Part shown: piece after piece, positions 12,741 through 12,846 of the stretch | Numbering within the stretch: position 1 is the first letter of the stretch | Layout: each line of letters opens with the position of its first letter | NCBI RefSeq assembly: GCF_988242995.1 | Contig: NZ_OZ547043.1 | Length of the DNA: 64,000 nucleotides | Direction: 5' to 3' (one strand) | Made by a program: the position numbers and the translations under genes | Notes under the pieces: model-generated | Told to the model about the DNA's origin: nothing | Databases searched by the model: none | What the model saw: only the letters and a program-made list of their open reading frames with translations

Positions 12741-12846
12741 AAATCGCGGAAGGGATGAAACAACAGCGCCTGACGGCGCTGTGTCTGGCATGCCTGCAAT
12801 CCGGGAGACTGGACCAGGAAAAAACTTGCAGGCCATAACAGTATCT

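Follow-up and report, generated by a model that had tools for sequence, protein, structure and literature searches.

The 1279-bp element at 11568-12846 of the window (the whole 64,000-nt stretch of DNA that was analysed) is, by its sequence, an intact copy of IS621, an IS110-family insertion sequence that encodes a DEDD/serine recombinase and a bridge RNA. Very probably, excision of this element joins the −35 box of its right end (RE) to the −10 box of its left end (LE) to form a sigma-70 junction promoter (Pjunc) that drives the bridge RNA and the recombinase, and integration splits Pjunc again. A junction promoter driving the bridge RNA was already published for IS621 in 2024 and is not new; a further IS621 copy with this promoter adds nothing new, the promoter having already been tested for the same element. 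The parts of the element and its core are as follows.

11566-11567, + strand: left CT core dinucleotide, which is the target's CT; a single CT is present in the empty site of E. coli 7/2
11568-12846, + strand: intact, integrated IS621 copy with CT duplicated at its flanks
11568-11759, + strand: LE, 192 nt, encoding the bridge RNA and differing at four positions from the canonical 191-nt LE
11582-11759, + strand: bridge RNA gene, 178 nt (canonical length 177 nt); the canonical RNA starts at LE position 15
11760-12740, + strand: intact coding sequence of the IS621 recombinase, 326 aa, identified with NCBIfam and Pfam
12741-12846, + strand: RE, including the right copy of the CT core at 12845-12846, delimited from the sequence and from other copies

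Of 5426 complete E. coli genomes, 2244 contain full-length matches to 11568-12846, which are about 98% identical and annotated as "IS110-like element IS621 family transposase"; altogether the IS621 matches comprise thousands of annotated E. coli copies, with a median of five places per genome. As in other members of IS110/IS621, the element is devoid of terminal inverted repeats, is inserted specifically in a REP sequence and has a duplicated CT core. In E. coli strain 7/2, the intergenic site between yaiL and fghA reads TTTTATCATGCCTACGGCCTGCGGG, and the empty site, TTTTATCATGCCT-ACGGCCTGCGGG, is the same as the joined flanks of the window copy with one CT. Both boundaries of the element are therefore fixed to the base by the uninterrupted site in 7/2. 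The joined flanks with a single CT also match the uninterrupted yaiL-fghA intergenic region in 5284 genomes, and IS621 is found at this same site in 98 complete genomes. IS621 has inserted into a REP sequence that has yaiL on one side and fghA/frmB on the other; the left flank is a REP arm, ...TATCATGCCT, and CT stands at both junctions. Other IS621 copies are located at ...TATCAGGCCT, TATCGGGCCT and TATCCGACCT. Three copies at unrelated REP sites start with TGTATTATCCC and end with ...CTTGCAGGCCATAACAGTATCT, the exception at the end being a frameshifted copy with TTGCTG. A tblastn search against plasmids returned mostly distant relatives with 35-43% identity, the ends of which are not definable by alignment. 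On the right flank, a REP/BIME-like palindrome at 12867-12907 matched Rfam naRNA4 with 31.8 bits, below its gathering score of 59.5, which is consistent with a position of IS621 within a cluster of REP sequences that is bordered by the convergent genes yaiL and fghA.

The recombinase scored 253 bits against NCBIfam NF033542, "IS110 family RNA-guided transposase" (cutoff 140), and contains the Pfam domains DEDD_Tnp_IS110 (PF01548, 1.7e-24) and Transposase_20 (PF02371, 9.7e-26). It thus has the architecture of the IS110 family, namely a DEDD RuvC-like domain at the N terminus and, at the C terminus, a Tnp domain that bears the catalytic serine. The catalytic residues D11, E60, D102, D105 and S241, numbered according to the plasmid names in Supplementary Table 2 of Durrant et al., are all kept, and three amino acids are changed relative to a canonical IS621 copy.

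When 11000-13400 was scanned with Rfam in E-value mode, none of the bridge-RNA families was matched, and only sub-threshold matches to the REP-like naRNA4 were returned, in the right flank. Because no Rfam family matched the LE, the bridge RNA was identified by its identity to the published sequence. The long non-coding LE with a bridge RNA of about 177 nt, which comprises a 5' stem-loop and target- and donor-binding loops, is that of IS621. The predicted fold of the RNA (−64.7 kcal/mol, z = −4.4) consists of the 5' stem-loop and two further stem-loop domains. The LE changes relative to the canonical copy are located at 11582 (A to T), 11641, 11646 and 11648. The last three, one of which is an inserted C, fall in the apical stem of the target-binding loop with pairing preserved, and the guide segments of the bridge RNA are unchanged in the window copy.

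The elements of the junction promoter are distributed over the two ends of IS621, as follows.

12819-12825, + strand: A-rich tract aaaaaac directly upstream of the −35 hexamer, read from the sequence and conserved in three other copies
12826-12831, + strand: −35 hexamer TTGCAG of the junction promoter, found from the sequence and with a weight matrix
11570-11575, + strand: −10 hexamer TATTAT of the junction promoter, found in the same two ways

At the right end, 12817-12855 reads ...ggaaaaaacTTGCAGgccataacagtatCT|acggcctgc..., and at the left end, 11555-11590 reads ...ttttatcatgcCT|tgTATTATccctcctgtgcagag... The placement of the two hexamers given in the initial annotation was confirmed at both ends. 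The −35-like hexamer ttgcag lies 13 nt from the RE terminus and is followed by gccataacagtat and the CT of 12845-12846; the −10-like hexamer tattat lies 2 nt inside the LE and is preceded by tg (11568-11569), before which stands the second CT (11566-11567). Joining of RE, CT and LE gives TTGCAG-N17-TATTAT, with a spacer of 13+2+2 = 17 bp. The near-consensus spacing that had been claimed for this arrangement holds, but "near-consensus" does not extend to the −35 hexamer itself, since TTGCAG shares only three of six bases with TTGACA and the whole promoter matches 8 of 12. This places the junction promoter below the threshold of the built-in promoter scan (at least 4/6 for each hexamer and 9/12 in total). 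An extended −10 (TGn) is absent, because the TG of 11568-11569 directly adjoins TATTAT instead of standing one base off. The A-rich tract upstream is possibly UP-element-like. As in promoters of the Pjunc type, the −35 and −10 boxes are located in opposite ends and come to lie 16-18 bp apart only after joining; in the chromosome, the two boxes are separated by about 1.25 kb and stand in the wrong order.

The same arrangement has been characterized experimentally for IS621. Durrant et al. 2024 (Nature, PMC11208160) reported that a sigma-70 promoter is restored across the RE-LE core upon excision and, by small RNA-seq of an RE-LE plasmid, found an RNA of about 177 nt starting at the junction promoter. 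When the donor was cut to 22 bp, the −35 box was removed and expression of the bridge RNA in cis was lost; recombination of the 22-bp donor was abolished and was restored by bridge RNA supplied in trans (PMC11208160). Hiraizumi et al. 2024 (Nature, PMC11208158) likewise assigned the −35 box to the RE and the −10 box to the LE, a 177-nt bridge RNA was mapped from this promoter, and a circular intermediate with abutted ends is stated for IS110 elements and IS621 in both papers (PMC11208160, PMC11208158). The excision-assembled split promoter for the non-coding RNA that had been proposed for the window copy therefore agrees with published work on the same element (PMC11208160, PMC11208158). The start predicted near 11582, at the 5' end of the non-coding RNA, also agrees with it, as 11582 is LE position 15, the 5' end of the published 177-nt RNA.

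The window copy resembles the IS621 of Durrant et al. and Hiraizumi et al. at about 98% identity; in both, the RE contributes the −35 box and the LE the −10 box, the spacing is 17 bp and the 5' end of the RNA falls at the same position. The two differ by T for A at the start of the RNA, the three apical-stem changes and the three recombinase residues, none of which affects either promoter hexamer. Across the 50-bp donor junction, 49 of 50 positions are identical and the sole difference is the +1 base; the expected start of the bridge RNA, 11582, is T here and A in canonical copies, and this base may shift or weaken initiation. In canonical IS621, transcription from the junction, the 5' end of the RNA and the dependence on the −35 region have been shown in the literature (PMC11208160), and the observations on the window copy concern its sequence, boundaries, identity, intactness, promoter geometry and conservation.

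Based on this arrangement, the following cycle is very probable for the window copy. IS621 would be excised as a circle in which RE and LE are joined via one CT core, and the −35 and −10 boxes, now 17 bp apart, would form the sigma-70 junction promoter. Transcription would then start about 7 nt downstream of the −10 box, at or next to 11582, and a single Pjunc transcript would give rise to both the bridge RNA of about 177 nt and the recombinase mRNA. Bridge RNA and recombinase would next pair the circle junction, as the donor, with a target in a REP sequence and insert the circle there, by which the junction promoter would be split again. Pjunc would in this way couple the production of bridge RNA and recombinase to the excised state of IS621, and it belongs to the natural background of the bridge recombinases that are now used for programmable genome rearrangement.

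The synthetic junction was scored with a weight matrix derived from sigma-70 hexamer frequencies as given in textbooks, with a penalty for the spacer. The RE-CT-LE junction reached 9.59 bits; when both strands of the window were scored, about 128,000 positions in all, just 32 (0.025%) did as well. With the upstream sequence of the integrated state, the TATTAT −10 scored 4.73 bits, about 5 bits under the junction, and this contrast between junction and integrated copy was repeated at three other insertion sites.

The two hexamers could nevertheless be promoter-like by chance, or they could be conserved for donor recognition by the recombinase and the bridge RNA and not for transcription; the weak −35 (3/6) would fit such an explanation, and so would the overlap of the −10 box with right-donor bases read by the bridge RNA, as donor columns 26-33 are also constrained for recombination. 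The conservation of the −35 box bears directly on this question. It was examined in 50-bp donor junctions of IS110 orthologues taken from two parts of Supplementary Data 1 of Durrant et al. and reduced to 60 sequences with less than 80% identity. Of these 60 junctions, 29 have a TTG that begins at column 5, compared with about 1.9% per position elsewhere; the nominal binomial P of about 5e-34 is overstated, as related sequences were treated as independent. The hexamer at this column is in most cases TTGACN. In 34 of the 60 junctions, TAnnnT begins at column 28, with 17 nt between the two motifs, and both occur together in 23. The −35 block (consensus CTTGAC) forms an island of conservation with unconserved columns 1-3 and 9-13 around it, upstream of the conserved block (columns 14-25) that ends at the CT core. 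An origin by chance or by donor recognition is highly improbable, because the −35 island is separate and has the consensus of sigma-70 itself, and because the published RNA-seq and truncation data tie the −35 to transcription (PMC11208160).

A further explanation for the conserved sequence at the −35 box concerns a hairpin at the right junction.

12855-12828, − strand: terminator-like hairpin of 11 pairs with a T-run at the junction of RE and right flank

The hairpin faces transcription from fghA/frmB. GCAGGCC, an RE sequence overlapping the −35 box, might serve mainly as a hairpin arm that pairs with GGCCTGC of the flank to make a minus-strand terminator shielding the element from fghA transcription, and the terminator-like site called at these coordinates, with its paired arms and T-run, speaks for such a role. 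The flank arm GGCCTGC is absent, however, at three other insertion sites at which the RE sequence is unchanged. The hairpin is thus a property of the insertion site in the window and not of IS621; it was rejected as the cause of GCAGGCC conservation, and a shielding role as the main function of this sequence is extremely unlikely.

Junction promoters have been reviewed for IS3/IS21/IS30 and IS110/IS1111 elements (PMC12288879). A Pjunc has been shown for ISEc11 and ISEc21 (PMC11187229), and for ISPpu10 a model in which regulation is state-dependent has been built on Pjunc (2026 preprint 10.64898/2026.03.19.712850). In these three elements and in IS492, as in IS621, the right end supplies the −35 and the left end the −10, the promoter is assembled only in the circle, and it drives the guide RNA and the transposase. 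Most IS110/IS1111 relatives have a better −35 (TTGACN) than IS621. Unlike IS621 as described, ISPpu10 in the integrated state additionally possesses a native promoter, which is weak, and a terminator at the junction, and ISPpu9 has no junction promoter, so that not every IS110 element possesses one (PMC12288879). The logic extends to IS911, IS2 and IS30 of the IS3/IS21/IS30 families, in which integration destroys a strong hybrid promoter that only the circular or tandem-end intermediate possesses (PMC12288879). Elements of this type work with DDE transposases, end in terminal inverted repeats and lack a guide RNA. In contrast to them, the promoter of IS621 overlaps a donor site that is read by RNA.

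The consequence for the integrated state is less direct. From the promoter geometry we infer that the integrated copy would be much less expressed than the circle, hence a self-limiting switch, which is the standard Pjunc model and has been restated for IS110 elements (PMC12288879; preprint 10.64898/2026.03.19.712850). The initial annotation had stated that in the integrated copy the −10 is preceded by REP-derived sequence with no good −35. This was borne out for the TATTAT hexamer itself by its low score in that context, and the built-in scan called no promoter at the left junction of the integrated copy, but the flank proved to contain a promoter-like site of its own.

11535-11563, + strand: promoter-like site CTGATG-N17-TATCAT in the REP-derived left flank, a consensus match of 8.21 bits

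This site ranks in the top 0.08% of window positions and ends 4 nt upstream of the LE; given this position, transcription from it could begin just inside the LE and run through the integrated bridge RNA gene. Its TATCAT exists only by virtue of the REP variant ATCATGCCT in place of the usual ATCAGGCCT. A weaker site, TTGTAT-N17-GAAAAT (6.96 bits), is present in the integrated and circular states alike. Upstream of the element, yaiL lies on the same strand as IS621 and stops at 11509, 58 nt before it; no + strand terminator was called by the scan between yaiL and the LE, and the REP hairpin in the left flank is only moderately stable.

Pjunc may therefore exist while the switch is leaky in the window copy, with bridge RNA and recombinase supplied by read-through from yaiL or by the REP-borne or internal site, so that excision would not be the main trigger. 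The co-oriented yaiL with no terminator called before the LE would permit this, and the flank site comes close to Pjunc in score (8.21 against 9.59 bits). An integrated element also logically needs some expression for its first excision, and ISPpu9 and ISPpu10 have native promoters instead of or besides Pjunc (PMC12288879; preprint 10.64898/2026.03.19.712850). The flank site is, however, a mere consensus match of 8/12 with a poor −35, and usual REP sites read TATCAG, without the essential final T of a −10. Read-through may be damped by the REP hairpin of the flank and by the 5' stem-loop of the bridge RNA, which has been reported as a terminator-like brake (preprint 10.64898/2026.03.19.712850). 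On balance, a leaky switch in which excision is not the main trigger is unlikely, though it carries some weight. A stronger form, in which the expression of integrated IS621 depends on the insertion site and the window copy would be a "hot" donor that makes bridge RNA and recombinase without prior excision, is a more doubtful suggestion still. Since Pjunc overlaps the donor site, the complex of bridge RNA and recombinase might also repress its own promoter on binding there.

Apart from complete copies, a solo fragment of the IS621 LE, about 58 nt long and containing the −10 box and the 5' stem-loop of the bridge RNA, is located downstream of znuB in many E. coli genomes. The occurrences (L005, 391-472; L006, about 301-366; hits H68-H77) represent one locus, with the direct repeat CTTATCCGACCT flanking the fragment. 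The fragment ends exactly where the bridge RNA gene encodes the left target guide, a mimic of the target site, and it was possibly generated by deletion or aberrant recombination at this guide-coding pseudo-target.
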